From a bacterium (GTDB lineage Bacteria; Desulfobacterota; S145-22), in contig JALSPC010000016.1 of the NCBI GenBank assembly GCA_026986155.1, positions 1 through 60,791 on the forward strand: a stretch of DNA of 60,791 bases, in the 5' to 3' direction. Made by a program: the position numbers and the translations under genes. The notes beneath the pieces were generated by a model that saw only the letters and a list, made by a program, of their open reading frames with translations, did no database searches and had not been told where the DNA came from. This document shows positions 13,094 to 35,638 of this stretch, one piece after another (positions within the stretch are counted from its first letter, which is position 1; the number at the start of each line of letters is the position of its first letter).

Positions 13094-13122
13094 ACTCTAA
13101 ACCCTTTTTTACCGTATGTCAA
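13094..13122 (-). promoter_or_regulatory. Sigma70-type promoter candidate for the tandem attenuator transcript
   Basis: Minus strand: TTGACA, a 17-nt spacer, then TAGAGT. Confidence 0.45.
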
Positions 13123-13176
13123 GCCCAATTTTTCGCATAAAATATTCTCACCAGCGAATTTCTAAGAAAGAAGTTC

Positions 13177-13205
13177 TTGACACATACCACATAGTGGTAT
13201 ATTAA
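13177..13205 (+). promoter_or_regulatory. Sigma70-type promoter candidate with an embedded palindromic operator
   Basis: TTGACA, a 17-nt spacer, then TATTAA. The spacer carries ATACCAC-ATA-GTGGTAT at 13184..13200. Confidence 0.45.
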
Positions 13206-13591
13206 ATTAAAATAAATCAAATTTAGAAAACCAAGAAGAATTGTAACATATTTTATGGACAAGAAAATGCGGGAAGTGAATTATTGCACGTTCGGCCATT
13301 GTTTAAAAAAGAATCTATGACAGCTGCTGTATCTCGAAAACACCTGTTTGAAGCTTTGCATTCTAAAACTGCGCCTATCGCGCCTTCCCCCGGGCACCCT
13401 CTTTTTTTCACCATATTATATAAAAACATCCACATATTTGATGACGACGTTTCATTAGTTCCGAATACCAAGTCTCAGGGAATCTCTCTCTATCCCAGGA
13501 AATTACAACTGTACGGAGTACTCTCAAGAGGGGGCATTCCCCCGCTTTATAATTCTGAAATCCCTTATCCAAGAAAGGAGGTTCTGTTTTC

Positions 13592-14026
13592 ATGAACGCA
13601 TCAAGACGAAAATTTCTCGACGGTCTTCTGGGGCTTTTCAGCCTCGCCGGGTTGGCCGCCTTGGCCTATCCAATCCTCAGGTATATCACTCCCATAAAAA
13701 AGAGAGAGGACTCCACGTTATCCGTCGTCGCCTCCAAGATCAACGTGCTGACCCCCAACACAGGGAAATTGTTCAAGTTCGGCAGTAAACCCGGGATTCT
13801 CATCATGACCCCCGAAGGCAAGTACCGGGCATTCTCCGCCGTCTGCACGCACCTCGGCTGCATCGTCCAGTACAGCAGCAAGGATCAGCAGATCTGGTGC
13901 CCGTGCCACAACGGCTGGTTCGATCTCAACGGTCACGTCGTGTCCGGCCCACCCCCTCGTGACCTCGAGCGCTACACGGTCTTCATAAAAGGACAAGATA
14001 TCATCGTGAAAAAGGAGAAGGCATGA
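13592..14026 (+). CDS. Rieske [2Fe-2S] protein
   Basis: 144 aa. Tat-like SRRKFLD followed by a TM segment. Rieske boxes CTHLGC and CPCHNGWF. Confidence 0.9.
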   Translation: MNASRRKFLDGLLGLFSLAGLAALAYPILRYITPIKKREDSTLSVVASKINVLTPNTGKLFKFGSKPGILIMTPEGKYRAFSAVCTHLGCIVQYSSKDQQIWCPCHNGWFDLNGHVVSGPPPRDLERYTVFIKGQDIIVKKEKA

Positions 14027-15084
14027 TGAAGGAAAAGATGCTCAATTGGGTCGAAGAAAGGTTTGACCTGTCCGCGATCCGGCATTTGACAAGGGAAAAG
14101 ACGGTTCCCGTGCACAGGTACACTCCTTTCTATTACTTTGGCGGGCTCGCGCTATTCTTCTTCGTCGTCCAGATTGTCACCGGTATCCTCCTCATGTTGT
14201 ATTACAAGCCAACCGGAGAAAACGCTTACGAAAGTATCCGAACCATTATGACCCAGGTTCGTTTTGGCTGGCTGATTCGTTCCATCCACGTCTGGGGCAC
14301 AAACTTGATGATGCTGGCCGTTTTATTGCACACGTTTGCCAAGTATTTTTTGAAGGCATACAGAAAGCCGAGAGAGTTGACCTGGATCTCCGGTTTCTTT
14401 CTACTCGTCCTGGCGTTGGGCTTCAGTTTTACCGGCCACCCGCTTCCCTGGAACGAATTCGCCTACTTCGCAGCAAAGATTGGAACGGCAAGCATCGGAT
14501 CGGTCCCCCTCGTCGGTCCCTGGTTGCTGGAAGCCATCCGAGGCGGTCAAGGTGTCACGGGTAATACCATCAGCCGTCTTTTCGCCCTGCACGTGGTTGT
14601 TCTCCCCCTCGTAACGATCGGGCTCGTGATTCTCCATCTCCTCTTCGTTCAAATCCAGGGTTCGAGTGTACCCATAAAGGTCAAACCGGTTGGGGAAATT
14701 CCCTTTTTCCCCAATTTTTTTCTCCGAGACTTGAGGGTATGGATGGGAGCCCTGATCGTTCTCGTCGGCCTGGCGACCTTCATCCCAGCCGAACTCGGGA
14801 AAAAAGCCGCCCAGTTCGCCTCGGCCCCGGCCGGGTTAAAACCCGACTGGTATTTTCTCCCCATGTACCAGATCCTGAAATGGATACCTTCAACCATTCT
14901 GGGGATTTCCGGTGAATTGATCGGGATCGGGCTCATCAGCACCGGCGCTTTGTTGATCCTGGTGGTTCCTTTTCTCGACGTCAAGGCCTCCCGGGAGGAA
15001 GAATCAACCTGGTTTACCGTCATTGGGGTCTTCGTTCTCTTTGTCTTCATGCTGGCAATTACAATCTACGCGAAATTATACTGA
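14023..15084 (+). CDS. Cytochrome b (b6 plus subunit IV-like fusion)
   Basis: 353 aa. FYYFGGLALFFFVVQIVTGILLMLYYKP and RSIHVWGTNLMMLAVLLH (haem-ligand helices). PDWYFLPMYQILK. ATGA overlap with the Rieske gene. Confidence 0.9.
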   Translation: MMKEKMLNWVEERFDLSAIRHLTREKTVPVHRYTPFYYFGGLALFFFVVQIVTGILLMLYYKPTGENAYESIRTIMTQVRFGWLIRSIHVWGTNLMMLAVLLHTFAKYFLKAYRKPRELTWISGFFLLVLALGFSFTGHPLPWNEFAYFAAKIGTASIGSVPLVGPWLLEAIRGGQGVTGNTISRLFALHVVVLPLVTIGLVILHLLFVQIQGSSVPIKVKPVGEIPFFPNFFLRDLRVWMGALIVLVGLATFIPAELGKKAAQFASAPAGLKPDWYFLPMYQILKWIPSTILGISGELIGIGLISTGALLILVVPFLDVKASREEESTWFTVIGVFVLFVFMLAITIYAKLY

Positions 15085-15097
15085 TCGGAGGAGCAAG

Positions 15098-16348
15098 ATG
15101 AGAAAAATAATCACCATTATCCTGGTCTTCACAGCCCTCGCGGTTTACCAGAATGTTCACGCCGAGGAAACCTCCTGTCAGGCCTGCCACGCCAAACTGA
15201 ATGGGCGCTTGTCTGAACCTGTAACCCAATGGAAAAACAGCGTGCATCACCAGGCGGGGATAAGCTGTACGAATTGTCACGGGGGAGACCCGGCCGCCCG
15301 CAGTGAAAGCTCCGCCCATAATGAAAAGACGGGATGGATTGGAAAACCCGGCCCAATCAAGTCAGTAAGAATTTGTGGAAATTGTCATGGGAACGAGCTG
15401 TTCATGAAAAAGTTTGACCCCAACGCGCGAACGGACCAATTGAAAAATTACCTCACCTCGAACCACGGGATTAATATCATGTTTAAAAAGGACGGCAAGG
15501 GTGCAACCTGCGTCAGTTGCCACGGCGCCCATGATGTCCTCAAGGCAATGAACCCTCAATCTCACGTCTACCCCACCCGGGTCGTGGAAACCTGCGCAAA
15601 ATGCCACGCCGACAAAAAACTGATGGCGAAATACGGAATATCGGGGAATGAAGTCTCGGAATATAAAAAGAGTGTTCATGCCAAGGCGTTGTATGAAGGC
15701 CATGACCTCTTCGCTCCTACCTGTAATGACTGTCATGGAAACCACGGCGCCGTTCCCCCAAAGGCCGCTTCTATCGAGGACGTGTGCGGCTTATGCCATG
15801 CCTTGGATCAGAAACTTTTCAACGAAAGCCCCCACAAGGCATGGAAAGAGTCCGGTTTGAGAGGATGCATGGAATGCCACGGCAACCACGCCATTCTGAA
15901 ACCCACCGACGCCATGCTGGCTCCCGGCAAGGGTATCTGTCTCAAATGCCATGAAACGGGAGAAAAGGCATTGAAAACCATGAACACCATGTATTCGACG
16001 CTAACAGGGTTGAAAAGAAAAATGGAAAACACCAAGAAACTGGTCGACACCGCCTCGGAAAAGGGGATGCCGATGGACGACGCCCTGCTCATTCTCCAGG
16101 AAGCGAGAAACAGTTACATCAAGTCTCATACGGCCATTCACAAGTTCAACGCCGCCTACGTGCAGCAAACGGCCCAAGGGGCATTCAAAGAGGTGATCAA
16201 GGCCCAAAAAATCGCCCATGCCCGCATTGCTGAAATAAAAAAACGCCGTGCGTTTTTTTACTGGTTCGGCGCCGTCATCATCCTGTTGATCCTTCTTTTG
16301 AGCATCAAGATCCGCATCATGGTGAAAAAGAAGAAACGGCTCCCTTAG
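15098..16348 (+). CDS. Membrane-anchored nine-haem c-type cytochrome
   Basis: Start at MRKIITIILVF, with a GGAGGAG SD. The track start at 15023 overlaps cyt b. Nine CxxCH motifs. C-terminal TM segment FFYWFGAVIILLILLLSIKI. Confidence 0.85.
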   Translation: MRKIITIILVFTALAVYQNVHAEETSCQACHAKLNGRLSEPVTQWKNSVHHQAGISCTNCHGGDPAARSESSAHNEKTGWIGKPGPIKSVRICGNCHGNELFMKKFDPNARTDQLKNYLTSNHGINIMFKKDGKGATCVSCHGAHDVLKAMNPQSHVYPTRVVETCAKCHADKKLMAKYGISGNEVSEYKKSVHAKALYEGHDLFAPTCNDCHGNHGAVPPKAASIEDVCGLCHALDQKLFNESPHKAWKESGLRGCMECHGNHAILKPTDAMLAPGKGICLKCHETGEKALKTMNTMYSTLTGLKRKMENTKKLVDTASEKGMPMDDALLILQEARNSYIKSHTAIHKFNAAYVQQTAQGAFKEVIKAQKIAHARIAEIKKRRAFFYWFGAVIILLILLLSIKIRIMVKKKKRLP

Positions 16349-16492
16349 GAATTCTACCAGTGAGCGCATGCCCCCATCCCTGGAATCACTTGACCCCCCG
16401 TCCTTCCGCCTGTAGGATCGTGCCGAAAGTAACAGGCCTCTCACCATGCCTGGGGACACAACTCGCGGAGACGGCCCCATCGGAGAGAAAGA

Positions 16493-16888
16493 ATGAAAGC
16501 TGAAGAGTTCGCTGCCATACGCAAAAGGCTGGGCAAGACCCAGAAAAAGATGGCCGAACTATTAGGTGTCTCGGTCAAAGCAATTCACAGTTACGAACAG
16601 GGGTGGCGCAAGATCCCGGCGCACGTGGAAAGACAAGCCTTCCTCCTCTTTTCAAGGACACTGGAAGACAGCAAAACGACAAAACCTTGCTGGGTCATCA
16701 ATGAATGCCTCCCACACATGGATGAAAAATGCCCTGCCTGGGAATTCAGGTTTGGAACCCTTTGCTGGTTTATCAACGGGACAATCTGTGAAGGGAAGGT
16801 TCATGCCAACTGGAATGAAAAGATGGAAGTCTGCCGTAAATGCAAGGTCATGGCCCCCCTTTTATCCGAACTCAACTCCTCAACCTGA
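16493..16888 (+). CDS. XRE-family HTH regulator with a Cys/Trp-rich C-terminal domain
   Basis: 131 aa. HTH segment LGKTQKKMAELLGVSVKAIHSYEQG. C-terminal half has 7 Cys including PCWVINEC and LCWFINGTIC. It is possibly the domain annotated as two-CW, but I am not certain. Confidence 0.75.
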   Translation: MKAEEFAAIRKRLGKTQKKMAELLGVSVKAIHSYEQGWRKIPAHVERQAFLLFSRTLEDSKTTKPCWVINECLPHMDEKCPAWEFRFGTLCWFINGTICEGKVHANWNEKMEVCRKCKVMAPLLSELNSST

Positions 16889-16981
16889 TGAACCATGACA
16901 CCCTCCCGTGATCCTGGTCGGGACCCGGGGGCGAAACTTTTCTGAAAATTTGGATATCTGCTCCCTTACCATCATCCTTGC

Positions 16982-17011
16982 TTGACGATATATACCACAA
17001 TGTGGTATATA
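16982..17011 (+). promoter_or_regulatory. Sigma70-type promoter candidate for metYXW with an embedded palindromic operator
   Basis: TTGACG, a 17-18 nt spacer, then GTATAT or TATATA. The spacer carries the perfect palindrome ATATACCACA-A-TGTGGTATAT at 16990..17010. Confidence 0.5.
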
Positions 17012-17049
17012 TCCGGGCAAATTTTCAAATCAATGAAAGGAGAAAGCTA

Positions 17050-18339
17050 ATGGCGGACAATGGATACAGGTTTGACACGTTAACGATTCACGCAGGTTCC
17101 ACGATAGACGAGACCGGGGCTCGCGCGACACCTGTTTACCGAACCAGTTCTTACATGTTCAAGAACACCCAGCACGCGGCGGATCTCTTCGCCCTTAAAC
17201 AACCGGGAAACATCTATTCACGGATTATGAACCCCACCCACGACATCCTCGAAAAAAGAATGGCGGCCCTGGAGGGAGGCGCGGGAGCCTTGGCGACGGC
17301 TTCCGGCACCTCCGCCATTTTCTACACGGCCGTAAACATCTGCGGCATGGGGGATGAGATCGTCTCGGCGAACAACCTCTATGGGGGAACATACACCATG
17401 TTCGACGCTATTCTTCCTGAAATGGGAATCTCCACGAGATTCGTGGACCCCTCAGACCCGGCAAACTTCGAACACGCGATAAGGGAAAGAACACGAATGC
17501 TTTACGTCGAATCGATAGGAAATCCCGCCCTTGACGTGGCGGATATCGAAGCGGTTTCCGAAATAGCAAAAAAATACCATCTTCCCCTCGTGGTCGATTC
17601 CACCTTCACAACCCCGTACCTCCTCCGTCCCCTTGAATCCGGAGCCGATATCGTGGTTCACTCGCTGACAAAGTGGCTCGGGGGGCACGGCACGGGCATC
17701 GGGGGAATCGTGGTGGACGGCGGACATTTCGATTGGACCGACAAAAAATTCCGCCTCTACAACGACCCCGACCCTTCATACCACGATCTCCGGTGGGCCC
17801 ACGACCTGGATGATTCAACCCCCCTGGCATTCATCCTCCGCATGAGGCTCGTTCCCCTGAGAAACCTGGGCGCGTGCATCAGCCCGGACAACGCCTGGAT
17901 ATTTCTCCAGGGCATCGAGACGCTCCCCCTCAGGATGCAGCGCCATTGCGACAACGCCATGAAGGTTGCCGGGTTCCTGAAAAACCATCCCCGCGTGCGG
18001 TGGGTCCGGTATCCCGGTCTTGAGGATGATCCCGCCCATCCCGCGGCTTCCAGGCAGTTCAAAAACGGCTTCGGTGGCATGGTCGTCTTCGGCATCGAGG
18101 GAGGGAAGGCCGCCGGGGAAAGCTTCATCAACAATCTTCGTCTCATCTCCCACCTTGCCAACGTGGGAGACGCGAAGACCCTGGCCATTCACCCCGCCTC
18201 CACGACCCACTCGCAGCTATCCGAAGAGCAACAGCAGGGAAGCGGTATAACTCCGGATCTCATCAGGCTTTCCGTGGGGCTCGAATGCGTGGAAGACATC
18301 CTCGAAGACCTCGAACAGGCCCTGGGAAAAACGGATTGA
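17050..18339 (+). CDS. metY: O-acetylhomoserine sulfhydrylase
   Basis: Start at MADNGYRFDTLTIHAG with an AAAGGAG SD. PLP-lysine motif HSLTKWLGGHG. Confidence 0.9.
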   Translation: MADNGYRFDTLTIHAGSTIDETGARATPVYRTSSYMFKNTQHAADLFALKQPGNIYSRIMNPTHDILEKRMAALEGGAGALATASGTSAIFYTAVNICGMGDEIVSANNLYGGTYTMFDAILPEMGISTRFVDPSDPANFEHAIRERTRMLYVESIGNPALDVADIEAVSEIAKKYHLPLVVDSTFTTPYLLRPLESGADIVVHSLTKWLGGHGTGIGGIVVDGGHFDWTDKKFRLYNDPDPSYHDLRWAHDLDDSTPLAFILRMRLVPLRNLGACISPDNAWIFLQGIETLPLRMQRHCDNAMKVAGFLKNHPRVRWVRYPGLEDDPAHPAASRQFKNGFGGMVVFGIEGGKAAGESFINNLRLISHLANVGDAKTLAIHPASTTHSQLSEEQQQGSGITPDLIRLSVGLECVEDILEDLEQALGKTD

Positions 18340-18362
18340 ACACGCCCGGTCCAGTATGAACC

Positions 18363-19550
18363 ATGAGTGAATACATTGAGCACGATAAAAACGGCGTATC
18401 GGTCGGTGTTGTAGAAAAAAAGTTCTTCACCTTCGCCAAGCCTCCCGATGAAATATGTCTCGAAAGCGGTGCGAAACTCGGCCCTGTCACCCTCGCCTAC
18501 GAAACCTACGGCACCCTGAACGAGGATAAAAACAACGCGATCCTCATCTGTCACGCCCTTTCAGGGGATTCCCACGTGGCCGGGTATTACGCGCCAAGCG
18601 ACCCGAAGCCAGGATGGTGGGACATCATGGTTGGTCCCGGAAAGGGAATCGACACGGACAGGTATTTTGTCGTCTGCTCGAACATCCTGGGAAGCTGCAA
18701 GGGCTCGACGGGTCCGTGCTCCATCAATCCAAAAACGAACAGGCCGTACGGTCTCGACTTTCCCGTCATAACCATCGGGGACATGGTCAAGGCCCAGAAA
18801 AGGCTCATTGATCACCTCGGAATAAAGAAAATCCTTTCGATCATCGGTGGTTCCATAGGGGGGATGCAGGCGCTCGAGTGGAGCGTGAGATACCCCGAAG
18901 CCGTTGCCTCCACCGTTGCACTCGCGACGGCCACGAGGCATTCCGCGCTGGCCATCGCCTTCAACGAGGTGGCAAGGCAGGCCATCATGGCGGATCCCAG
19001 TTGGAAAGGGGGAAACTACTACGGGGGCCCCGGGCCGGACACGGGACTCACCGTGGCCAGGATGATCGGGCATATCACCTACCTTTCGGAAGAGGCCATG
19101 AGGGAGAAGTTCGGCCGGCGCCTACAGGGAAGGGAAAAATTCTCTTTCCGATTTGACGCCGATTTCCAAGTGGAAAGCTATCTCCGCCACCAGGGCAGCA
19201 AGTTCGTGGAGCGGTTCGATGCCAATTCCTTTCTCTACGTCACAAAGGCGGCCGATTACTACGACCTGCCCGGCCAGCACGGCTCGGGATCCCTGGTCCA
19301 CGCCTTTGCAAAGGCCAGGGCGAAGTTCCTGGTGGTCTCCTTCACGTCCGACTGGCTCTATCCTACCCGTCACTCGAGGACCATGGTACAGGCCCTCAAA
19401 AAGTGCGGCCGCGACGTAAGTTTCTGCGAAATCGAAGCAAAATGGGGACACGACGCCTTCCTCCTGCCCAATGACCGCCTGGCGGGCCTCCTCAGGGGGT
19501 TCCTGGCGCGCGTCTTTTTTGATGAAAGCAATGGAAAGAATGCGTTTTGA
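18363..19550 (+). CDS. metX: Homoserine O-acetyltransferase
   Basis: 395 aa. ILICHALSGDSHVAG. Nucleophile elbow GGSIGGMQALEW. Confidence 0.92.
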   Translation: MSEYIEHDKNGVSVGVVEKKFFTFAKPPDEICLESGAKLGPVTLAYETYGTLNEDKNNAILICHALSGDSHVAGYYAPSDPKPGWWDIMVGPGKGIDTDRYFVVCSNILGSCKGSTGPCSINPKTNRPYGLDFPVITIGDMVKAQKRLIDHLGIKKILSIIGGSIGGMQALEWSVRYPEAVASTVALATATRHSALAIAFNEVARQAIMADPSWKGGNYYGGPGPDTGLTVARMIGHITYLSEEAMREKFGRRLQGREKFSFRFDADFQVESYLRHQGSKFVERFDANSFLYVTKAADYYDLPGQHGSGSLVHAFAKARAKFLVVSFTSDWLYPTRHSRTMVQALKKCGRDVSFCEIEAKWGHDAFLLPNDRLAGLLRGFLARVFFDESNGKNAF

Positions 19551-20163
19551 CCTGGAAACCATCGCGTCCTTCATTGAGCCCGGCGCCACGGTTTTGGATC
19601 TCGGCTGCGGGGACGGTGACCTTCTCTACTTCCTGAAAAAAGAGAAGAAGATTGAGGGTATAGGCATCGAGAAAGATGAAGCGAAAGTCGCTCGTTGCAT
19701 CGAACGGGGGATTCCCGTGATTCATGGCGACATCAACAAAGAGATCCTCGACTACCCGGCCAACGCCTTTGACTATGTGATCTTGAGCCGAACGCTCCAG
19801 CAGGTATATGATCCGGCGGGACTCATTCATTCTATGCTGCGCGTGGGGAAAAAAGGAATCGTCAGTTTCCCCAATTTCGGCCACTGGCGCGTTCGCTGGC
19901 AGCTGCTTTATACGGGACACACTCCCGTCACGCGGCAGCTTCCCTACGAATGGCACGACACCCCGAACATCAGGGTTATTACGCTGAAGGATTTCCGAAA
20001 ATTTTCCAGAGACACGGGATTCCGAATCCTGAAAATTTCCGGACTCGTCATGGAGAAGGAGAACGCCGGGGGACGCGTAGTGAGATTTTTCCCAAACCTG
20101 CGGGCTGCCTACGGAATCTTTCTCATCGGGAAGAAACTTCCTTACGAGTCACCCGATAGTTAG
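19540..20163 (+). CDS. metW: Methionine biosynthesis protein MetW
   Basis: MRFDLETIASFIEPGATVLDLGCGDGDLL matches the usual MetW N-terminus. In-frame ATGs at 19522 and 19531 are alternatives. It overlaps the metX stop. Confidence 0.85.
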   Translation: MRFDLETIASFIEPGATVLDLGCGDGDLLYFLKKEKKIEGIGIEKDEAKVARCIERGIPVIHGDINKEILDYPANAFDYVILSRTLQQVYDPAGLIHSMLRVGKKGIVSFPNFGHWRVRWQLLYTGHTPVTRQLPYEWHDTPNIRVITLKDFRKFSRDTGFRILKISGLVMEKENAGGRVVRFFPNLRAAYGIFLIGKKLPYESPDS

Positions 20164-24965: not shown

Positions 24966-26756
24966 TCAACGCGCGAAAATCTTTTCCAGCTCCCTTATCG
25001 TGAGAAAATGAACAAAGGGACGGCCGTGGGGACAAGCGAGGGGAATGCCTTCCCGGATAACCTGATCCAACAGACTGTAGGCCTCGGGAACGGAGACTTC
25101 ATCCTGGCCACGGCTGGCGGCGTGGCAGGCAATGGTAGCCAAAAACCCATCCACACGATTGGAAAGCCCTTCCATGGTGGGGGTTTCCGAAAATTCTTGA
25201 AAAAGCTCCCGAACGAGGGATTCCGCTTCCTCTTGGTTCACCCACTCGGGGAGGGACGTGACGCGAAGAGTCCCTTCCCCGAAGGGTTCCAGGACAATTC
25301 CCATCTTCCGGAGAAGGGGATTGGAAAGGCGGTAGATCTCCGCTTCAGCCGCATCGATGGAAACGACCGCGGGCAGAAGGCAGCGCTGGGACGGCACGGA
25401 ATGGCCGTAGTGCCGCTTTAGGCGTTCGAAAATGAGACGTTCGTGGGCGGCGTGCTTGTCGACAATAAAGATTCCCCCGCCATAGGCAGCCACGACGTAG
25501 GTATTGACCACGACGCCCAGGATTCTATAATCCCGCGGGATCCCTTCCGGCTCATGGCCTGCGCGTTTAACTTGAGATGCCCCATCGAGATCCTCGCGGG
25601 TGCCGTAGCTTTCCAAAGGCGCCTCCAACACTTGGGGAACCAAACGATTCAGAAAATCCTCACCTTGTCCCCGTCTGTCTTTTTTGGTCACGTAACGGGC
25701 CGATGAGAACCGGAGACTGGGATTCGGGGGTTGGTATCTTTCCCCTAGAACCTCTTGAACCGGGTTGGGATGGACGGACAGGGCGGAGGCTATGGCCTTT
25801 TGCAGCCATCCCAGTATCTCGTATTCCTGAGTAAGGCGCACTTCGAACTTGGACGGGTGGACGTTTACGTCTACCAGCCCAGGCGGCAGGTCCAGGCACA
25901 GCACCCCGTCCGGGATATATCCCTTCGGCGCCACAGAACGATAGGCGCTCAAAACAGCGCGAAGGATCTTTCTGTCGGTAATCCAGCGCCGATTCAGGGA
26001 AAAGAAGATTCCCCGCCCCCGGTTCCGGACAAACGGGGGAACCGCAATCAACCCCCAAAGCCGCGCGCCGTTGAATTGCCCGTCCACCGGGACCATGGGC
26101 TGGTCCTGGATATCAGGCCAGATCTGCGTCAGTCTGTCTCCAACCTCCTCAACCACGGGAAGCGCCAAGACGCGCTTTCTCTCCTGAATGACCTCCATCT
26201 GAACCGGAAGGTTTACCAGACTCAGCGCATGTAAGACGCGAAACAGGTGAAATCCCTCCGTCCGGTCGGATTTGAGGAAACGTCGGCGCGCCGGGGTATT
26301 GTAAAAAAGGGTCCGGACACTTACGACTGTTCCAGGTGACATGCCGCAATCCCGGACTTGCCGGATCTTTCCTCCCTCAAGGGTGATTTCCGTTCCCGCC
26401 GCATCTTCCGGCCGCCGGGTCCGAATCGTCATGCGGGACACGGCGGCAATGCTAGGCAAGGCCTCACCCCGAAATCCGAGGGTGGAAACCCGGTGAATGT
26501 CCTCCGCTGATAATATTTTACTGGTAGCGTGCCGCTCGATACACAGGAGGGCGTCTGAACGGGACATGCCGCATCCGTCGTCCTCCACCTCGAGAAGGCG
26601 TTTCCCCATCTTTTCCAGGCGCAGGATGATACGGCGCGCTCCCGCGTCCAGAGAGTTCTCCATTAGCTCCTTCAACACCGACGCGGGACGCTGCACCACT
26701 TCACCCGCGGCGATTTTGTGAATGACCGCCTCGTCCAGAAGATGGATGCGTCCCAT
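24966..26756 (-). CDS. mutL: DNA mismatch repair protein MutL
   Basis: 596 aa. GHKL ATPase N-terminus IAAGEVVQRPASVLKELMENSLDAGA. C-terminal ACPHGRP motif. Confidence 0.95.
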   Translation of the reverse strand: MGRIHLLDEAVIHKIAAGEVVQRPASVLKELMENSLDAGARRIILRLEKMGKRLLEVEDDGCGMSRSDALLCIERHATSKILSAEDIHRVSTLGFRGEALPSIAAVSRMTIRTRRPEDAAGTEITLEGGKIRQVRDCGMSPGTVVSVRTLFYNTPARRRFLKSDRTEGFHLFRVLHALSLVNLPVQMEVIQERKRVLALPVVEEVGDRLTQIWPDIQDQPMVPVDGQFNGARLWGLIAVPPFVRNRGRGIFFSLNRRWITDRKILRAVLSAYRSVAPKGYIPDGVLCLDLPPGLVDVNVHPSKFEVRLTQEYEILGWLQKAIASALSVHPNPVQEVLGERYQPPNPSLRFSSARYVTKKDRRGQGEDFLNRLVPQVLEAPLESYGTREDLDGASQVKRAGHEPEGIPRDYRILGVVVNTYVVAAYGGGIFIVDKHAAHERLIFERLKRHYGHSVPSQRCLLPAVVSIDAAEAEIYRLSNPLLRKMGIVLEPFGEGTLRVTSLPEWVNQEEAESLVRELFQEFSETPTMEGLSNRVDGFLATIACHAASRGQDEVSVPEAYSLLDQVIREGIPLACPHGRPFVHFLTIRELEKIFAR

Positions 26757-26832
26757 AGCGTTTTTAAGGTATCACAACCGAGAATTGGACATCAAGGAAA
26801 AAGTCTGGACTCCAGTAATCGTTCCGGCCCAT

Positions 26833-26864
26833 AAAAAAGAGGGACGAATTGTTTTCGTCCCTCT
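26833..26864 (-). terminator. Rho-independent terminator closing the bamBCDEF-like operon
   Basis: Minus-strand stem AGAGGGACGA / TCGTCCCTCT followed by TTTTTT. Confidence 0.65.
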
Positions 26865-26885
26865 CTCCGCGTGCTTTCCTCTCGG

Positions 26886-27719
26886 TTACGATTCCTTCTT
26901 CGCCACAGCGCGCTGGTCGTCGGGCACGGGCGGCGGGACCGGCACACCCCCTTCAAGCTTGGTGACGGCGGAGAATCGCGGCGGGCAGACCTCGAGGCAG
27001 GTGCCGCAACGGATGCATTTCTCCTGGTCGATGATATGGATGACCTTCTTGTCCCCGTCGATGGCGTCCACGGGGCAGTTTCTCCTGCAGGTACCGCAGC
27101 CTTGGCACTTTTCCGGATCGATATAGTAGGAAGGTTTCTCGGTAAAGAGTTTCTCCACCTCCTCGCGCGTGTAGAGGGCGGCATACTCGTCGGTGTTCTC
27201 GAGGTGCTTCAGCAGTTTGTCCCGCTTGGCGATCTTGATGTAAGGGATGTTCTTGATCACGCCCTGAATTCTCGCCTCCAGGTCGTTTTCGCTCAGATCC
27301 TCGCTGGAGCCCAGGGGACCCAGATCCCGAACCGTCTTGGTAAAGGATGTCACTGTATCCGCGAAACGGATGCCCTCGGAGGCGGTAACCCACTGCAATT
27401 TCAGCCTGTCGGGATTTATCCCCGCGTATTCAAGGAGCCTTTTCGCCAGGCTCGCCATGCTGGCCGCGTTGTAGTTGCCCTCCGGAACGTAGTGGCACTC
27501 GCCCGGCCAGCAGCAACAGATGAGAACCCCGTCAGCACCTTTTTCAAAGGCCCGGAACACGAACGACAAGTCAACCCTTCCGCCGCACATGAGGCGGATG
27601 ATCCTAATCTCTGGGGGATACTGTAGCCGGGAAACTCCGGCTATATCGGCAGCGGCGTAGCCTCACCAGTGGCACAAGAAACTAATGATCTTCGGCTTGA
27701 ATCCAAAACCTGCGCTCAT
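26886..27719 (-). CDS. bamF: MvhD-like protein fused to a 2x[4Fe-4S] ferredoxin domain (BamF-like), with in-frame UGA read as selenocysteine
   Basis: The track shows only 26886..27590. The same frame is open up to the ATG at 27719 except for a TGA at 27663..27665. Translation: MSAGFGFKPKIISFLCHW-U-GYAAADIAGVSRLQYPPEIRIIRLMCGGRVD. The TGA sits at the second Cys of the MvhD CxWC motif. The C-terminus carries CQGCGTCRRNCP and CIRCGTCLEVCP. Confidence 0.8.
27617..27647 (-). other. SECIS-like hairpin candidate downstream of the bamF-like UGA
   Basis: The minus-strand RNA GAUAUAGCCGG-AGUUUC-CCGGCUA(CAG)UAUC forms an 11-bp stem with a 3-nt bulge. It starts 15 nt after the UGA. Confidence 0.4.
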
Positions 27720-27750
27720 TTGTGGTCTTCTCCTTTTCGTTCAACAGCGG

Positions 27751-30700
27751 CTACAAAATCTTTGAAACCGCCGCGTCAATCTCACTGATGACCTCTTCGT
27801 TGTTGTAATGCTTCAGGGAAATGGCCGCCGTCGGGCAGACCGCGTTGCATAATCCGCATCCCTTACAGAGGACGGGGTTGACTACCGCCTTTTCCCTTTT
27901 CCGTTTCTCCTCGAGCCGGATGGCCCCGTATGTGCAGGCCTCCGCGCACGCACCGCATCCCATGCACCGCTTCTCGTCCACCGTGCAGACGGCGCCGGAG
28001 ACCGTGACGATGTCGTGGGAGAGGAGAGTCAAGACACGCCCGGCCGCCCCGTAGGCCTGGTTGATCGATTCCTCGATGTGCTTGGGGTAGTGGGCGATGC
28101 CGCAGAGAAAGACGCCGTCCGTGGCGAAATCCACGGGCCGCAACTTGACGTGTGCTTCCTTGAAGAAGCCGTCCGGCCCCAGGGGAACCTTGAAGAGGTT
28201 GGCGATCTTCTGACTTTCCGGGGAGGGCACCACGGCGGCCGCCAGGCCGAGGATGTCGGCGTCGATGGCAATGTCCTTCCCCAGAATGGGATCATAGACG
28301 CCCACCCGCAGAACCTTCCTGCCCCCTTCCTCCACGGGCTGGACAATGGGGGCCTTTTCGGGCTCGTAGCGGATGAACTTGATGTCGTTCTCGGAGGCCT
28401 CGCGGTAGTAGTCCTCCTTGAAGCCGTAGGTTCGCATATCCCTGAAGAGGATGTAGATATCGGCCTGAGGATTGGCTCTTTTCAGGTTCAAGGCGTTCTT
28501 GACCGCGTGGCTGCAACAAACCCGGCTGCAGTAGTTCCTCTCCTCGTTCCGGCAACCCACGCACTGGATCATCACCACGTTTTCGGCGTTCATCACCGCC
28601 TCGTCGCCCTTGGCGATTTTCTCCTCCATCTCCAGGTAGGTGAGCACCTTGTCGTTCTCTCCGTAGAGATACTCGGAGGGGGTATATTCGTCGGCGCCGA
28701 TGGCGATAACCGTGGCCCCGTGTTCGATCTCGCGGGTCCAGCCGCCGGTATCAACGGTGGTTACGAAGTTCCCAATGTAGCCCCTTACTTCCGTGATGGC
28801 CGAGCCGGTCATGACATGAATGAGGGGATGGCTGTAAACCTTCCTGGCCAGGTCCCCGAGGTAGGTCTGAACGTCCATCCCTTCCAGGGTCCGGTAGAGT
28901 TTCCGCGCCATGCCGCCCAGCTCGGATTCCTTTTCAACGAGATAGACGTCATGTCCCTGATTGGCGATGGAAAGAGCGCAGGACATTCCCGCGACGCCCC
29001 CGCCCACCACCAGGGCGTTCTTGTTGACGGGCAGCTCAATCTCCTGGAGAGGCTCCAGGTGCGTGGCCCGGGCCACGGACATCCGGATGATATCCTTCGC
29101 CTTTTCGGTGGCCTCCTCCTTCTCCTTGGAATGGACCCACGAGTTGTGCTCTCGAATGTTGGCCATCTCGAGGAAATACTGGTTGAGGCCCGCCTCCCGG
29201 ACCGTGTCCCGAAAAAGGGGCTCCAGCGTCAGGGGGGAACAGGCCGCGATGACCACGCGATTGAGATTCTTCTCCTTGATGGTATCGGTAATCTCCTGGG
29301 CGGCGTTGGTGGCGCAAGAGAAGAGCTGCTCCATGGAGAAGACCACGTTGGGCAGCGTCCGCGAATACTCGACCACCGAGGGAACATCGACCACGCTGCC
29401 GATATTGGCGCCGCAATGGCAGACGAAGACCCCGATCCGCGGCTCCTCTTCCGCCACGTCACGCTCGACGGGATAAACCTTCTCGACGGTAAGTTTGGAC
29501 CGCCGCTTTTCGAGGAGTTCCCCGGTGAGGGAGCTGGCTCCGCTGGCGGAAAAGACCGACTCGGGAATGTCGATGGGTCCCTGGAAGGCGCCGCTCACGA
29601 AGATTCCGGGACGCGTGGTTTCGATGGGGAGGGCGGGATTGGTTTTGCAAAAGCCATGCTCGTTGAGTTCTATCCCGAACTTTTCGGCCAGTGCGTCCGC
29701 CCGCTTTGGGGGATCCAGGCCCACGGAGAGAACCACCAGGTCGAATTCCTCCTCTTTGACGCCCTCATCAGGCGTGGCGTAGCGGACAGTGACGTTCTTG
29801 GTCTCCGGGTCTTCCCCCCCCACGGAGACGTAGCTGCGGATGAAGCGAACCCCGGGAAGATCCGCCGTTCTCTGGTAATATCGCTCGAAATCCTTCCCAT
29901 AGGATCGGACGTCGTTGTGAAAGATGGTGCACTCGGCCTCTTCGTCATGCACCTTCATGAGGGTGGCCTGCTTCTGGGCGTAGGTGCAGCAGACGGTGGA
30001 GCAGTAGGTATTGCTCCCTTCTTGAACCTTCCGCGACCCCACGCACTGGATCCAGGCAACCTTCTTGGGATGTTTCTGGTCCGAGGGACGCAGGACCTCT
30101 CCCCGGTAAGGCCCCGTGGAGCAGGTGAGGCGCTCGAAGTCGAGGCTGGTCACCACGTTCTCATAGACCCCATAGCCGTAGTCCCTGCTCAGGCTGGGAT
30201 CGAAGGGCTCGAAGCCCGAGGCCAGGACCACCGCCCCCACGTTGACCTCCACCTTCTCCGGGGTCTGACTGAAATCAATGGCCTTGTTCTCACAGACACT
30301 CTGGCAGATGAGGCACTTCTCTTCCGTCAGGTAGATGCAGGCGTCGGGGTCCACGTAGGTGACCAGGGGAACGGCCTGCTCGAAGTAGATGTGGATGGCC
30401 TTGTTGTTGGACAAATCCTGGTTGTAGGGATCAGGGACCTGGATGGGACAATACCTCACGCAGGTGTTACAGCCCGTGCAGATGTCCTCGATGATGTAGC
30501 GGGGTTTCTTGACCAAGGTGACGTTGAAATCCCCCGCTTCCCCGTCAACCTGCTCGATTTCCGTGTAGGTTAAAACCTCGATGTTGGGATGCCGGCCGAC
30601 CTCGACCAGTTTGGGCGCCAGGATTCACGTGGAGCACTCGTTGGTCGGAAAGGTCTTGTCCAGCTGGGCCATGTGGCCGCCGATGGACGGGGCGCTTTCC

Positions 30701-30843
30701 ACCAGGTAAACCTTGAAGCCGGCGGCGGCCAGGTCGAGGGAGGCCTGCACCCCGCTGATTCCCCCGCCCACGACCATGACATCGCCAAAATTTCCCTCCA
30801 TGGGCATCGTCAAAGGCTGTCCTTTATCGAATTCTTTTTCCAT
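27751..30843 (-). CDS. bamE: Large HdrA-like flavo-FeS protein (BamE-like), with in-frame UGA read as selenocysteine
   Basis: Track ORFs 27751..30516 and 30625..30843 are in the same frame, giving 1031 codons in total. They are interrupted only by a TGA at 30625..30627. Context: [34 protein letters not shown], where HdrA normally has ...NDCSMC-ILAPK. Two GxGxxG sites ([32 protein letters not shown]). Four ferredoxin-type CxxCxxCxxxCP motifs. Confidence 0.8.
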
Positions 30844-32039
30844 TACGCGTTGACCTCACCGGTTTCTTCCGTTTCCTTTATCGCCTCCAGGATAACCTCG
30901 GTAATATCCTTGATCTTCAAGACATCATCGTATTCCATGGTGATGCGGCTGTCCTCGAAGTTGGTGATGCAGTAGGGACAGGCCGTCACCAGTTCCTCCG
31001 CCCCGGCATCCACCGCCTGCTTCAGCCGGATGTCTGAGAAACGCTCCCCCTTGGGGACCTCCATCCAGATCCTTCCCGCGCCGCCGCCGCAGCAGAGGGC
31101 GTCCTCGCGGGTTTCAGCCATCTCCACCAGTTCCAGGCCGTCAATCCGCGAGAGCACCTCCCGAGGCTCGTCGTAGATCCCATTGTGGCGGCCCAGGTAA
31201 CAGGGGTCGTGGTAGGTAATCTTCTTCGCGAATTTTCCGTCGATTTTCAGCCTTCCCGCCTCGATGAGCTCAAAGAGGAACTGCGTGATATGCACGATCT
31301 CGAAATGGACCATAAATTCGGGGTATTCATTCTTGAAGGTATGGTAACAATGGGGAGAAGAGACCAGGATACGCTTCACGCCGTGGTCGATGAAGGTCTT
31401 GATATTCGCCTTAGCCAGGGAAATGAACATCTCTTCGTCCCCCGTCTTGCGGATGCTCTCGCCGCAGCAGTTCTCTTCCTTCCCCAGGATGCCGAAGGAG
31501 ACGCCCGCCTTTTTGAGAATCTCCACGGTGGCTCGGGCCACCTTTTTCAGCCTCGGGTCGTAACTGGGATAGCATCCGGGGAAGTAGAGGATCTCCATGT
31601 CCTGCTCAAAGGGCTTTACCCCCAGGCCTTCCGCCCAGGCGGCGCGGTCTTCACGCTTCTCGTTGAGGGGATTGCCCTCTGCCAGGAGACTGGCCCGGAT
31701 CGACCGGATGGGTTGAACGGCCGAGGGGAAGGCCATGTATTCCGTAGCGACCCGCCTCAGCGCGATCACCGAATCAATCTGTCTCACGTCCCTCGGACAC
31801 CGCTGGGGGCACTTCCCGCAACTGGTGCACCGCCAGATATCTTCCGCCTCGATGTCGGTCATCCCGAACGTCGCTTCCCGCACGATCTTGCGCATGCTGA
31901 AGGTAATAACCTTGTTCCACGGGCAAACCGTATCGCACAACCCGCACTGGAAACACCGCTTGAAGGCGTCCCCGCCCTGTTCCTTTATGACCTCAACGAT
32001 TTCCTTGTAATCGGCAATATTCTCCACGGTCTCTACCAA
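30843..32039 (-). CDS. bamD: HdrD-like FeS protein with CCG domains (BamD-like)
   Basis: 398 aa. [13 protein letters not shown] and [16 protein letters not shown] motifs [10 protein letters not shown] and [12 protein letters not shown]. The start is uncertain: TTG at 32039 or GTG at 32027. Confidence 0.8.
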
Positions 32040-32054
32040 CCCTCTTTTTAAGGC

Positions 32055-32624
32055 TTAGACGGCCCCTTCTTCCTTTGCTGCCGCCATCCGGGCCAAGGTT
32101 TTCATCAGCTTATCCATACCATACTTGTCGATGAGCGCCTCGACGCCCAGCTCCAGGTCTTCCACTTTCACCTCTTCTTCCTCTTCCTCGACCTCCACTT
32201 CCACCTCTTCGTAGGTCAGGGCGTCGTCGATGCAGACCTGGACGCACATGGGTTCCTCCAGAGGAGGCTCCGTCTCGCACATGTCGCACTTGAGGGGCAG
32301 ACCGGAATCGGGTTCCTTGAAAAGGTCCCGGGAGGGGCAAGAGGCGCGGCAGAAGGCGCACTCGTCGTATTCCTGGCCGTTTAGGGTGTAGGTGTTGCGT
32401 CCCGCGCACTCGGCCGGGGTGTATTCTCCCGCGTAAACGGGGAGGTAGATGTTCCGGATGGGATCGTGGAACACGTGAATCCTGGCCCGGGCCGGGTTCA
32501 CGCTGCTGTATTTCGGCTCCGCATGGAAGGCGGCACAAATCGCCTCGCAGGCCCGGCAGCCGTTGCACTGATCCGCGTCAATCTTTATCCGCTTGATAAT
32601 CTTCGTTTTTTTCTTCTCCTTCAC
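32055..32624 (-). CDS. bamC: Poly-ferredoxin-like FeS subunit (BamC-like) with an acidic tail
   Basis: 189 aa. CNGCRACEAICAAFH, CAFCRASCPS, CDMCE...CVQVCIDDAL. C-terminal tail EVEVEVEEEEEEVKVEDLE. GTG start with an AGGAG SD. Confidence 0.8.
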   Translation of the reverse strand: MKEKKKTKIIKRIKIDADQCNGCRACEAICAAFHAEPKYSSVNPARARIHVFHDPIRNIYLPVYAGEYTPAECAGRNTYTLNGQEYDECAFCRASCPSRDLFKEPDSGLPLKCDMCETEPPLEEPMCVQVCIDDALTYEEVEVEVEEEEEEVKVEDLELGVEALIDKYGMDKLMKTLARMAAAKEEGAV

Positions 32625-32638
32625 GGCTCACTCCTACG

Positions 32639-34657
32639 CTAATTCTTCTCTTTTTCCCCGGACGCTTCGCTCGAAGAAGTCCCGTTCCCTTTCAGGACAC
32701 CACGTTTGATGAGGTCCTCCGCCACATATCCCAGGCCGAGACCTTCCAGTGTCTCCCTGGTAGGAACCCCATCCGTGTTCCAACCCTTGTACTTGTAATA
32801 TTCATCGAGGAGCTTCGCCTCGTATTCGGGAAACCGCTTCTTCCAGTGATCCTCGGGCGGCTTCTCGTCCGTCTTGCGCAATCCGCGCCGCAGGTTGATG
32901 GCCCGGACCAGGTTTCTTGTCCTTCGGGCTATCGTCCAGAGGCCGTCCTCGTCGATATCAAGTCCCGTGGCGTGGGAAATGATGACCGGCAGGTTATGGA
33001 TGTGGTAGGCGGGTTTCAGGGGAAAGGACGACAGTCCCGCGCAGAGGCCGAGGGTGTCATCGATGTAGTGCATCGTCTCCTGCCACTCCACCAACTCGCA
33101 GATGAGGTCGATGGGCGGCCAGAAGGGGAAGCGTTTTCCCTCCTCGCCCCATTCCATGATGAACTGCTTGAACTTCTCTTCCTTGCCCGTGGGAATCTGA
33201 ACCCAGTCCTTGATAAAATCCTCCTTCAGTTCCTTGGTGGGAAAGGGCGCCTGGGGCATCTGCCCCTCGATCTGGGTAATGTTGATCTTCTCCCCCGTGG
33301 ACCAGAGGATGTAGTAGATGGGGTTGAGCATCCCCAGCTTGATGGGAATCTGCTCGTGCTTCTTGATGGTGTTGTGGTCAAATTTTTCCGCCCCCTTCCC
33401 GATCTTCCGGGCGGCCCAATAGACGCCTTCCGCCAGGACATCGCCGATCCCTTCCCGGTGAACGATCTTGTCCAAGAGGTAGAAAAAGCGGTCCTCGTTC
33501 TTCTCGGGAAATCCCGGCAGGTCTTCATCCGTGAGGATACCGTTCTCGTAGAGCTCCACGGCAAAGGCCATGACCTGGGGCGCCGTGTAGCCGTCCACCC
33601 CGTATTCCTGGGCCAGCCCCGCGATCCGAAAACCGAATTCCAGGTCGTCCGCCATGGCCCCCATGACGTAGGTCAGCTTGGAGTAACACTTCATCATGTA
33701 CCGGTGGGTGGGCAGTTCCGGGTGAGGAACAATGGCCCCGCACCGCATGGGGCAGTTGTAACAACTTATCAGCCGCTCCACCGATCTGGACTGCACCTCA
33801 TGCCACCGTTTCTCCGTCTCCTCGGTCCAGAAATCCTTCCGGCGCACCCGGGCGTTTCCCCATGAGAAGCTGGTGGTGTGCCACTGCTCGTCGTTGATGG
33901 CCATCTCCTGGGGCGACCCGAGACCCGCCAGGATGGGCGGCACGCCCTTGATGGGGTTTTCCCTTCGGAACTCGATGTATTTCAGAATCTTGTCGCACTC
34001 CTCCCAGAACTCCGCTGGGTGGGCGATATTGAGGTCGTTCGTGCCCCTCACGGCGATGGCCTTCAGGCCCTTGCTGCCCATCACGGCGCCGATCCCGCCG
34101 CGGCTTGCGCTGGAGCGCTCGTGCTCGATGGAAGCATAATAGACCTGGTTTTCCCCCGCCAGGCCGATGGCGAGAATCCGGGCCCTCGGCTCCTTCAGTT
34201 CCTCCCGTATCAACTCCGCCGTTTCCAGCGCCCCCTTGCCATGGAGATGGCTGGCGTCGCGAATTTCAACGGTATCGTTGTCTATCCAGAGATAGACCAA
34301 ACCCGAGGCCTTTCCCCTGACGATGACCTTGTCGAAACCGGCGTATTTCAACTCCGGCGCCCAAAACCCGCCCATCATGGAAAAGGCCATCAGCCGGGTC
34401 TGGGGTGACAAGGTCGTCACGATGGTCCGGTTCGCCGAAGGCGCCAGCGTGCCTCCCAGGAGGCCCGAACTGAAGATGATGATGTTCTCCGGCGAAAGGG
34501 GATCCGTCTCCGGAGGAACACGGTCCCATAGGATCTTGGCGTTCGTCCCCAATCCTCCCAGGAAAAGCTCCGTGTCCCTTGGATCCGTCGCGACCTTCTC
34601 GATGTTCCCGTGCGTAAGGTCAACCTCTAAATTGAAACCTGTCTCTGTATACCTCAT
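32639..34657 (-). CDS. bamB: Aldehyde:ferredoxin oxidoreductase-family tungsten/molybdopterin enzyme (BamB-like)
   Basis: 672 aa. AOR N-terminal domain LFLGGLGTNAKILWD...IIIFSSGLLGGTLAPSANR. It is the first gene of a BCDEF-ordered operon. AGGAGG SD. Confidence 0.8.
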   Translation of the reverse strand: MRYTETGFNLEVDLTHGNIEKVATDPRDTELFLGGLGTNAKILWDRVPPETDPLSPENIIIFSSGLLGGTLAPSANRTIVTTLSPQTRLMAFSMMGGFWAPELKYAGFDKVIVRGKASGLVYLWIDNDTVEIRDASHLHGKGALETAELIREELKEPRARILAIGLAGENQVYYASIEHERSSASRGGIGAVMGSKGLKAIAVRGTNDLNIAHPAEFWEECDKILKYIEFRRENPIKGVPPILAGLGSPQEMAINDEQWHTTSFSWGNARVRRKDFWTEETEKRWHEVQSRSVERLISCYNCPMRCGAIVPHPELPTHRYMMKCYSKLTYVMGAMADDLEFGFRIAGLAQEYGVDGYTAPQVMAFAVELYENGILTDEDLPGFPEKNEDRFFYLLDKIVHREGIGDVLAEGVYWAARKIGKGAEKFDHNTIKKHEQIPIKLGMLNPIYYILWSTGEKINITQIEGQMPQAPFPTKELKEDFIKDWVQIPTGKEEKFKQFIMEWGEEGKRFPFWPPIDLICELVEWQETMHYIDDTLGLCAGLSSFPLKPAYHIHNLPVIISHATGLDIDEDGLWTIARRTRNLVRAINLRRGLRKTDEKPPEDHWKKRFPEYEAKLLDEYYKYKGWNTDGVPTRETLEGLGLGYVAEDLIKRGVLKGNGTSSSEASGEKEKN

Positions 34658-34791
34658 TTTCTTCCCTTTTATCCTCCTGAATTAGAATCCTCTCGCCGGG
34701 CGCGCCTCGCCCCGACCCTCCAACGAAAAACAGCCTTTACCTTGCGTCAAGGCTGAAATCTGCATTTTACCTGAGTCGTCTAATTGTGAAA

Positions 34792-34820
34792 TTTATAACT
34801 TTATCAAGCATACATGTCAA
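34792..34820 (-). promoter_or_regulatory. Sigma70-type promoter candidate for the bamB-like operon
   Basis: Minus strand: TTGACA, a 17-nt spacer, then TATAAA. It lies about 130 nt upstream of the ATG. Confidence 0.4.
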
Positions 34821-34993
34821 GAAAAAAATTGGACGCGCGTTCAAATTTCCGCTCCCGCCAACAAATCAAAAGCGGTATCCCAAGAAAAATAAAATATGAT
34901 AAGATGATAAATGAAAGGAGATCGCGGTATGAACATGAGACATCAAGGACGGTCAGGCAAGAATTGTATCATCCCTTCCGGTGAATTATCGTT

Positions 34994-35638
34994 ATGAATC
35001 GCGAAATGAAACTTATTGAGAACATTCGTCTCTGTCATCCAGACATTTATCAAGTCTCCGAATCGAGTCTCATCATTTTTTACCGGGAAATCCTGAAATG
35101 GAATAAAACCTTGAACCTTGTTTCACGAAAAGACCCGGAACGCGCGACCATGAGACTTATCATCGATTCCCTCTATCTAAGGCATGTCATTGAGGGCAAC
35201 GAAGTCATTCTCGATATCGGCGCCGGCGCGGGATTTCCAAGCATACCGCTTATGCTCTGCCATGACGCTTGCGAAATCGTCATGGCCGAATCGAGGAAAA
35301 AACGCGCCGCGTTTCTCCAACACATTATTTACTTGCTGAAGATAGACAATGCCTCCGTCGTCTGCGAAACCGTTTCCGAAGATTTCTTCAAAGATTACGA
35401 GTCGTTCGACATCATTTGGGCCAAGGCCGCCCTCCCCCTCAAACGCCTTTTTGTTTTGGGAAAAAGAGGTCTCAAAAAGGGCGGTAAATTAGTCTTTTTT
35501 CGATCTTTTGAGAAAAAAGACGAACGGGAAAGACTCCGTAGAGCGGCAACCGAACATGGATACACGCCGCCGTCACAAAATGTTTATAGTTGCCCCGATT
35601 TATATCTCACCCGCACGATTACCGTCTGCAGGCGATAA
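34994..35638 (+). CDS. rsmG: 16S rRNA (guanine527-N7)-methyltransferase RsmG
   Basis: 214 aa. WNKTLNLVS and SAM motif ILDIGAGAGFPSIPL. Confidence 0.85.
   Translation: MNREMKLIENIRLCHPDIYQVSESSLIIFYREILKWNKTLNLVSRKDPERATMRLIIDSLYLRHVIEGNEVILDIGAGAGFPSIPLMLCHDACEIVMAESRKKRAAFLQHIIYLLKIDNASVVCETVSEDFFKDYESFDIIWAKAALPLKRLFVLGKRGLKKGGKLVFFRSFEKKDERERLRRAATEHGYTPPSQNVYSCPDLYLTRTITVCRR

Follow-up and report, generated by a model that had tools for sequence, protein, structure and literature searches.

We analyzed a five-gene operon on a 60,791-nucleotide stretch of DNA (contig JALSPC010000016.1, assembly GCA_026986155.1; the whole stretch is referred to here as the window) from a bacterium of the Desulfobacterota lineage S145-22. 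The operon is of the bamBCDEF type and belongs to a class II benzoyl-CoA reductase, the tungsten- and selenium-dependent enzyme by which strict anaerobes reduce the benzene ring independently of ATP. It has no bamGHI in cis, and the lack of bamGHI is a systematic architecture rather than a local loss, because a whole group of related operons ends in the same way. In these operons, BamF carries a fused C-terminal ferredoxin domain that appears to replace BamGHI as the port through which electrons enter the complex. Judged from sequence comparison, the enzyme is most likely a true reductase of class II for which reduced ferredoxin is the only electron source.

The original prediction, made from the window alone, had described a bamBCDEF-like operon that ends without bamGHI, and this description holds. 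It explained the missing genes either by an electron-bifurcating partner encoded elsewhere or by a paralogous system with another substrate. Neither explanation fits best, and the prediction overlooked that the ferredoxin end of BamF may itself stand in for BamGHI. The gene order B-C-D-E-F, the sizes, and the coordinates it gave all check out, as follows.

32639-34657, minus strand: bamB, catalytic subunit, a tungsten-pterin protein of the AOR family, 672 aa (Pfam AFOR_N and AFOR_C)
32055-32624, minus strand: bamC, Fe-S electron-transfer subunit, 189 aa
30843-32039, minus strand: bamD, HdrD-like protein, 398 aa, with a 2x[4Fe-4S] dicluster and two CCG domains
27751-30843, minus strand: bamE, 1030 aa, flavoprotein of two fused HdrA-like halves, with selenocysteine (Sec) 73 in CxxU and a 2x[4Fe-4S] domain at the C-terminus
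26886-27719, minus strand: bamF (whole), 277 aa, with a FlpD/MvhD domain at residues 11-134 and two Fer4 motifs at 198-246
27132-27719, minus strand: bamF part 1 (aa 1-196), MvhD/FlpD [2Fe-2S] adaptor with Sec19 and a helical linker, common to long-form BamF
26886-27131, minus strand: bamF part 2 (aa 197-277), ferredoxin domain of the clostridial 2x[4Fe-4S] type with a Pro-rich tail, the proposed electron entry port

Short and long forms of the operon

To place the window among related systems, one genome per species was scanned, yielding 551 BamB relatives, and the best 80 of the 551 were retrieved as loci and typed by the genes 3' of bamE. Two forms were found. The short form, represented by 35 loci and this window, has a BamF with the ferredoxin fusion (about 275-285 aa; 255 aa in locus L071) that carries two Cx2Cx2Cx3CP motifs beyond residue ~195, and no NuoE/F/G-like genes follow it. 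The long form, found in 21 loci, has a 255-aa BamF that lacks these cysteine motifs; the genes after it are bamG (~152 aa), bamH (~641 aa), and bamI (~204 aa). A single typed locus (L083) had neither form, and the remaining loci were cut by contig ends. The fusion and bamGHI occurred together in none of the 80 loci, which argues that BamGHI was replaced rather than relocated. Clustering of the neighboring genes found no conserved substitute module beside bamF in the short-form loci. The exceptional locus L083 (Thermodesulfobacteriota MAG220) has bamB followed directly by bamE, with no bamC match and a marginal bamD-like match of 54 bits; its 261-aa BamF has no ferredoxin motifs and no bamGHI after it.

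The two types of BamF share one body and differ in their ends. Residues 1-194 align at 43-52% identity between the short and long forms. Beyond this point, the long-form BamF (L045) ends in an ArsR-type winged helix (HTH_5 at 204-243), where the BamF of the window has its Fer4 motifs. Eight cysteines of the fused domain are invariant in 28 short-form BamFs. Over 66 aa, the fused domain of the window is 60-73% identical to the C-terminus of BamH from long-form loci, and its best non-self match among 61 ferredoxin-like stretches of its own genome is the C-terminus of a HydB-like protein on contig C47 (65% identity, 88 bits; second-best match, 65 bits). An AlphaFold model of BamF built from the 28 short-form sequences (pLDDT 88.8) consists of an MvhD fold (TM 0.88-0.93 to chains of 5ODC, 8RVU, and 7BKB), five helices, and a clostridial ferredoxin fold. 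Sequence and fold searches of a local PDB copy with BamF and with the NuoF of C47 matched no chains of the Geobacter holo-complex, and the comparison with BamH was made with the long-form loci.

The Geobacter enzyme has been described in a cryo-electron microscopy preprint (bioRxiv 10.64898/2026.04.10.717634), in which BamGHI is the input that confurcates NADH and reduced ferredoxin, the C-terminal domain of BamH (clusters H1/H2) accepts electrons from external reduced ferredoxin, and the winged helix of BamF contacts BamI. The winged helix of the long-form BamF agrees with this BamI-docking element. The domain found at the end of the short-form BamF thus resembles the ferredoxin-accepting domain of BamH, and, on these sequence comparisons, it may serve as a replacement for BamGHI and as the entry port for electrons.

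Phylogenetic trees were consistent with an exchangeable input module. In the BamB tree, which comprised the 80 loci and the window (Geobacter BamB1 and BamB2 were not among the sequences), short and long forms were interleaved, and well-supported branches forced at least 6 switches between them; a tree of BamF residues 1-194 forced at least 4. Locus L045 (long) and locus L088 (short) were sisters in both trees, and some BamBs from short and long operons were near-identical. This interleaving argues against a separate, substrate-specialized paralog, and the trees show repeated exchange of the input module around an unchanged catalytic core.

We also searched for BamF in 401 genomes sampled evenly across the phylum and obtained a BamF-like match in 114 of them. 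By table count, about 75 matches span the ferredoxin domain and about 65 stop near residue 194, forms being assigned here by the extent of the BamF match alone and not by downstream bamGHI; several genomes contain both BamF types. Closer to the window, the operon was found in all eight family relatives searched, with a single-copy BamB at 70-91% identity, and the BamF matches seen in these relatives were all of the full-length short form. The closest BamB loci belong to uncultured Thermodesulfobacteriota.

Identity of the enzyme and its genomic setting

BamB and BamC are close to their Geobacter counterparts. BamB matches the crystallized Geobacter metallireducens BamB (4z3w_A) over its full length (1033 bits, residues 1-656), with 433 of 656 aligned columns identical (~66%), and BamC matches 4z3w_E over residues 4-180 (239 bits). 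The next PDB match of BamB, the Pyrococcus furiosus AOR, scores 219 bits, so that BamB falls with the BamB type and not with generic AORs, the comparison that the original prediction had proposed as its own check. In the alignment to 4z3w_A, BamB keeps YMMKC, QWH, and PQE at the equivalents of Cys322, His260, and Glu251. We take Cys322 to be the tungsten ligand of BamB and His260/Glu251 to be its active-site pair, residue roles that reportedly come from Weinert et al. 2015. BamD (HdrD-like, two CCG domains), BamE (fused double HdrA), and BamF (MvhD-like selenoprotein) have the expected domain content. BamB is single-copy in the source genome, where no other gene of the AOR family exceeds 44% identity to it, and then only over partial length. 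About nine further AOR-family genes were counted (on C68, C184 [two], C90, C47, C22, C117, C129, and C53), an unusually large set for a 2.7-Mb genome. In the first CCG domain of BamD, the terminal motif reads HCYH where CxxC is expected.

Two of the five frames are interrupted, each by an in-frame TGA. In bamE, the single in-frame TGA lies at 30625-30627 (NECSTU), and in bamF, the TGA lies at 27663-27665 (CHWUGY). Among 68 related loci, 55 have TGA and 13 have Cys at the BamE position, and the BamF position is TGA in most related loci and Cys in a few. The source genome encodes a tRNA-Sec and a SelB that scores above its NCBIfam cut-off. Because of this TGA/Cys alternation together with the tRNA-Sec and SelB, the reading of both codons as selenocysteine is well supported, as had been predicted for the 1030-aa and 277-aa proteins. 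The residues that follow the BamE position change with its state: Sec is followed by IL(A/S)PK and Cys by IESPKF (loci L020-L099), a correlated change adjoining the redox-active CxxC/U pair.

Because the uncharacterized Geobacter paralog BamB2 reaches the same ~66% identity to BamB1 (PMC1924859), the substrate of BamB was inferred from genome context. The source genome is a 2.68-Mb metagenome-assembled genome in 197 contigs, 93% complete. Of the pathway genes whose search the original prediction had proposed, bamA/Oah (571 bits) and bamQ/Had (479 bits) both exceed their equivalog cut-offs and are adjacent on C173, neither of the two NuoF-type genes viewed in context was linked to Bam, and no dienoyl-CoA hydratase reached its cut-off. 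On the minus strand of C173 (~11200-19998, L103), these two genes lie with genes for EtfB, EtfA, a membrane oxidoreductase, and a glutaryl-CoA dehydrogenase-like protein of the Desulfococcus type (419 bits, below the cut-off of 470). The membrane protein (665 aa) combines NarI-like, Fe-S, and two CCG domains and resembles ETF:quinone oxidoreductases. Since ETF and an ETF:menaquinone oxidoreductase are the proposed high-potential exit from BamD (bioRxiv 10.64898/2026.04.10.717634), this cluster joins the genes for ring cleavage with the exit route proposed for the reductase.

Subunits of a class I reductase were also considered, and none reached its NCBIfam cut-off in the genome. Neither of two further candidates was accepted as evidence for such an enzyme. 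On C149, a BcrAD-type ATPase has a crotonase as its neighbor but is otherwise isolated. An HGD-D pair on C136 (2711-5111, L113; 2-hydroxyacyl-CoA dehydratase family) is best explained as HadBC, scoring far below the BcrB/C cut-offs; it has no adjoining activator ATPase, the BcrAD-type ATPases being located away from it on C149, C17, and C126. A gene for DsrA was not found in the source genome.

The boundaries of the operon agree with the original prediction, which had placed a sigma70-type promoter before bamB and a strong terminator followed by mutL after bamF. The five genes are co-directional and tightly packed, the bamD stop codon sharing one base with the bamE ATG, and all frames are open save for the two in-frame TGA codons. 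With the terminator and mutL following bamF, and no NuoE/F/G-like gene elsewhere in the window, the BamGHI module is not encoded in cis, as predicted. The features outside the five genes are as follows.

34792..34820, minus strand: sigma70-like promoter, TTGACA at 34820-34815, 17-nt spacer, TATAAA at 34797-34792, read directly from the sequence
34726..34755, minus strand: leader hairpin, possible attenuator, CAGCCTT, 11-nt loop, AAGGCTG, then TTTTT
26833..26864, minus strand: intrinsic terminator at the end of the operon, with a 15-bp stem before a U-run (-24.5 kcal/mol, z = -3.7)
24966-26756, beyond the bamF terminator: mutL, with MutL_C, DNA_mis_repair, and HATPase domains

The promoter/terminator scan listed neither site, as it accepts only -10 hexamers whose sixth position is T and the T-run of the terminator overlaps the stem; both were confirmed by direct reading and folding. 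The promoter is kept in four of five related upstream regions (L020, L022, L023, and partly L021). Between promoter and gene, ~70 nt 5' of the bamB start codon, lies the leader hairpin, whose stem and T-run are kept in L020-L023; at the equivalent position of L024, another and longer hairpin precedes a T-run. This hairpin may be a transcription attenuator. A scan of positions 26500-35200 at E<=1 gave no Rfam family match to the leader and no riboswitch, only three sub-threshold chance matches.

A GNAT acetyltransferase gene (~150 aa) was observed near the bam genes in 18 typed loci (e.g., L025:9392-9838 and L088:10024-10476), usually directly upstream of bamB on the same strand and downstream in a few loci such as L088. 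It is reminiscent of Geobacter bamK. The window has no GNAT gene, and rsmG lies upstream of its operon on the opposite strand.

Electron supply and rival explanations

We consider it probable, with real room for doubt, that the bam operon encodes the organism's only class II (ATP-independent, tungsten- and selenium-containing) benzoyl-CoA reductase, in a short form made of B, C, D, E, and F with the fused BamF domain as its entry port. We infer the following route of electrons through such a complex. Reduced ferredoxin, or a ferredoxin-reducing enzyme directly, would reduce the fused 2x[4Fe-4S] domain of BamF, and the electrons would pass over the [2Fe-2S] cluster and Sec19 of BamF and the CxxU pair of BamE to the bifurcating FAD of BamE. 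From there, one very-low-potential electron would reach the tungsten site of BamB through BamC and drive the step from benzoyl-CoA to dienoyl-CoA, and one high-potential electron would leave through BamD and ETF to the membrane ETF:quinone oxidoreductase encoded beside bamQ and bamA. NADH would donate no electrons, and the confurcation of HydBC type that the Geobacter enzyme performs would be bypassed; because the short-form complex has no NADH-binding subunit, confurcation cannot occur within it. The wider proposition, that the short form is self-sufficient on ferredoxin and that HydBC-type confurcation is an optional economizer swapped in and out repeatedly, seems to us evenly balanced between true and false.

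Several observations weigh against supply by ferredoxin alone or against the assignment as a benzoyl-CoA reductase. No biochemical data on any short-form complex were found in the literature searched. If ferredoxin were the only donor, each ring would take four input electrons, all of them at low potential, which would be costly. A copy of bamGHI could, strictly speaking, lie outside the 93%-complete, 197-contig assembly, and strain NaphS2, which has a bamB-F cluster and a separate bamG-I cluster (PMC2988823), indicates that BamGHI could in principle be supplied in trans. On the side of the pathway, the best candidate for a dienoyl-CoA hydratase (Dch/BamR) reaches 159 bits, with the cut-off at 292, and the best candidate for a benzoate-CoA ligase scores 272 bits against the TIGR02262 cut-off of 375. 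The identity of BamB to the characterized BamB is no higher than that of BamB2 (PMC1924859).

Candidates for a confurcating module acting in trans lie among the NuoF-type genes of the genome. There are only three Complex1_51K genes, on C77 (459 aa), C141, and C47, and the contexts of the latter two were viewed. On C141 (L101:6211-11099, plus strand), a CooS-type CO dehydrogenase (CODH) is followed by NuoE, NuoF, and a NuoG-N-terminal-like protein; on C47 (L102:7292-13959, minus strand), a three-subunit 2-oxoacid:ferredoxin oxidoreductase (OFOR; alpha, beta, gamma) is followed by NuoE, NuoF, and a flavodoxin. That one of these HydBC-like sets docks on the ferredoxin domain of BamF is suggested by the identity of the C47 NuoE and NuoF to long-form BamG (45-56%) and BamH (57-66%), by a BamI-like protein with 2Fe-2S and 2x[4Fe-4S] clusters in the C141 set, by the conservation of both sets in five family relatives, and by the separate clusters of NaphS2. 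However, each set lies within its own described cluster type, Por-Bfu and Codh-Bfu, respectively, and because Por- and Bam-linked BfuB belong to the same clade, the likeness of C47 to BamG and BamH is expected without any role in Bam (Schut et al. 2022, PMC9304861). No BamI-like gene adjoins the C47 set, the short-form BamF lacks the winged-helix end with which the long-form BamF would dock BamI, and the mutual exclusion of the fusion and bamGHI favors replacement over relocation. Supply in trans, the first of the two explanations offered originally, is thus a weaker reading than feeding by ferredoxin through the fused domain, and we regard it as unlikely.

The second explanation was that this BamB-type enzyme has another role. 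It might act on a substituted or otherwise different aryl-CoA or enoyl-CoA, or it might run mainly in the aromatizing direction, oxidizing dienoyl-CoA as in fermenting syntrophs. Its identity to the characterized BamB at the level of a paralog, the ligase and hydratase candidates below their cut-offs, and the missing dsrA, which may point to a fermenter or syntroph, are all in keeping with such a role, and the Geobacter enzyme also transfers electrons from dienoyl-CoA to ETF in vitro (bioRxiv 10.64898/2026.04.10.717634). Nevertheless, BamB is single-copy with its catalytic residues kept, it is interleaved with the BamBs of full operons, some near-identical across the two forms, and two genes specific to the benzoyl-CoA pathway, bamA and bamQ, score above their equivalog cut-offs. 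We consider another role improbable, though slightly less so than supply in trans. Finally, since it lacks three of the eight subunits of the canonical complex, the operon might be seen as the decaying remnant of a full bamBCDEFGHI without a functional enzyme. This is very hard to reconcile with frames that are open save for two conserved Sec codons, a genome that encodes the Sec machinery, an operon kept in eight of eight family relatives at 70-91% BamB identity, eight invariant cysteines in the fusion domain of 28 sequences, and an intact promoter and terminator. Taken together, we find a short-form reductase fed through its own ferredoxin domain to be the reading that the data fit best.

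Comparison with known systems and significance

The closest characterized system is the Geobacter Bam complex, with which the window shares the gene order B-C-D-E-F, the full-length similarity of BamB (1033 bits) and the similarity of BamC (239 bits), an HdrD-like BamD, a fused double-HdrA BamE, and an MvhD-like BamF with Sec at CxWU; the source genome likewise encodes ETF and a membrane ETF:quinone-type oxidoreductase. In contrast to Geobacter, the operon of the window has no BamG, BamH, or BamI, and thus its complex has no NADH-binding subunit. Its BamF ends in a 2x[4Fe-4S] domain like the C-terminus of BamH instead of the ArsR-type winged helix of the long form, and its BamE has Sec, not Cys, as the second residue of the CxxC/U pair. 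The sulfate-reducing strain NaphS2, a deltaproteobacterial-type anaerobe compared here by the description in its paper, likewise has a bamBCDEF cluster (NPH_7171-7176) that lacks bamGHI in cis. NaphS2 differs in having a separate bamG-I-like cluster, whereas the HydBC-like genes on C47 and C141 are tied to OFOR and CODH; the paper is silent on a BamF-ferredoxin fusion (PMC2988823).

The MvhAGD-HdrABC and FdhAB-MvhD-HdrABC complexes of methanogens (5ODC, 7BKB) contain an MvhD-type adaptor (47% identity, TM 0.88-0.93) that feeds a bifurcating HdrA FAD, and they share the HdrBC/D-type high-potential branch. Unlike these complexes, the enzyme of the window would use its low-potential branch to reduce an aryl-CoA at tungsten rather than ferredoxin, its donor would be neither a hydrogenase nor a formate dehydrogenase, and its adaptor has a fused ferredoxin domain of its own. 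The Por-Bfu and Codh-Bfu systems (PMC9304861) match the contexts of the two HydBC-like sets of the genome, and the BamF fusion resembles the C-terminal domain of BfuB; these sets are on other contigs and unlinked to the bam operon.

The separation of a bamB-F cluster from bamG-I was already noted for NaphS2 in 2010 (PMC2988823). In the literature searched, two key papers lying outside it, no description was found that relates a ferredoxin fusion of BamF to the absence of BamGHI; among the papers searched, only the one on the NaphS2 genome mentions BamF along with a ferredoxin domain. The present analysis adds the family-wide short form, the repeated switches between short and long forms in the trees of BamB and BamF, an inventory of the HydBC-like sets, the cluster of ETF, ETF:quinone-oxidoreductase-like, bamQ, and bamA genes, and the conserved leader hairpin.

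These results bear on how bamB-like operons are read and studied. Where metagenomic surveys rate a pathway by how complete its bamB-I set is, they will misread short-form organisms as having a partial one. As a five-subunit target, the short form would be simpler to express and to solve.

Class II benzoyl-CoA reductases catalyze one of the lowest-potential reactions in biology, which the 2026 cryo-electron microscopy model explains by two flavin-based modules acting in series (bioRxiv 10.64898/2026.04.10.717634). A natural version without the first module is roughly as common as the long form in the phylum sample, and it is the only version seen among the small-genome bacteria of one entire family, offering a direct test of whether the first flavin module is needed. 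If the proposed reading is true, a single HdrA-type bifurcation would suffice for the reduction of the benzene ring, and NADH/ferredoxin confurcation would not be a mechanistic requirement.

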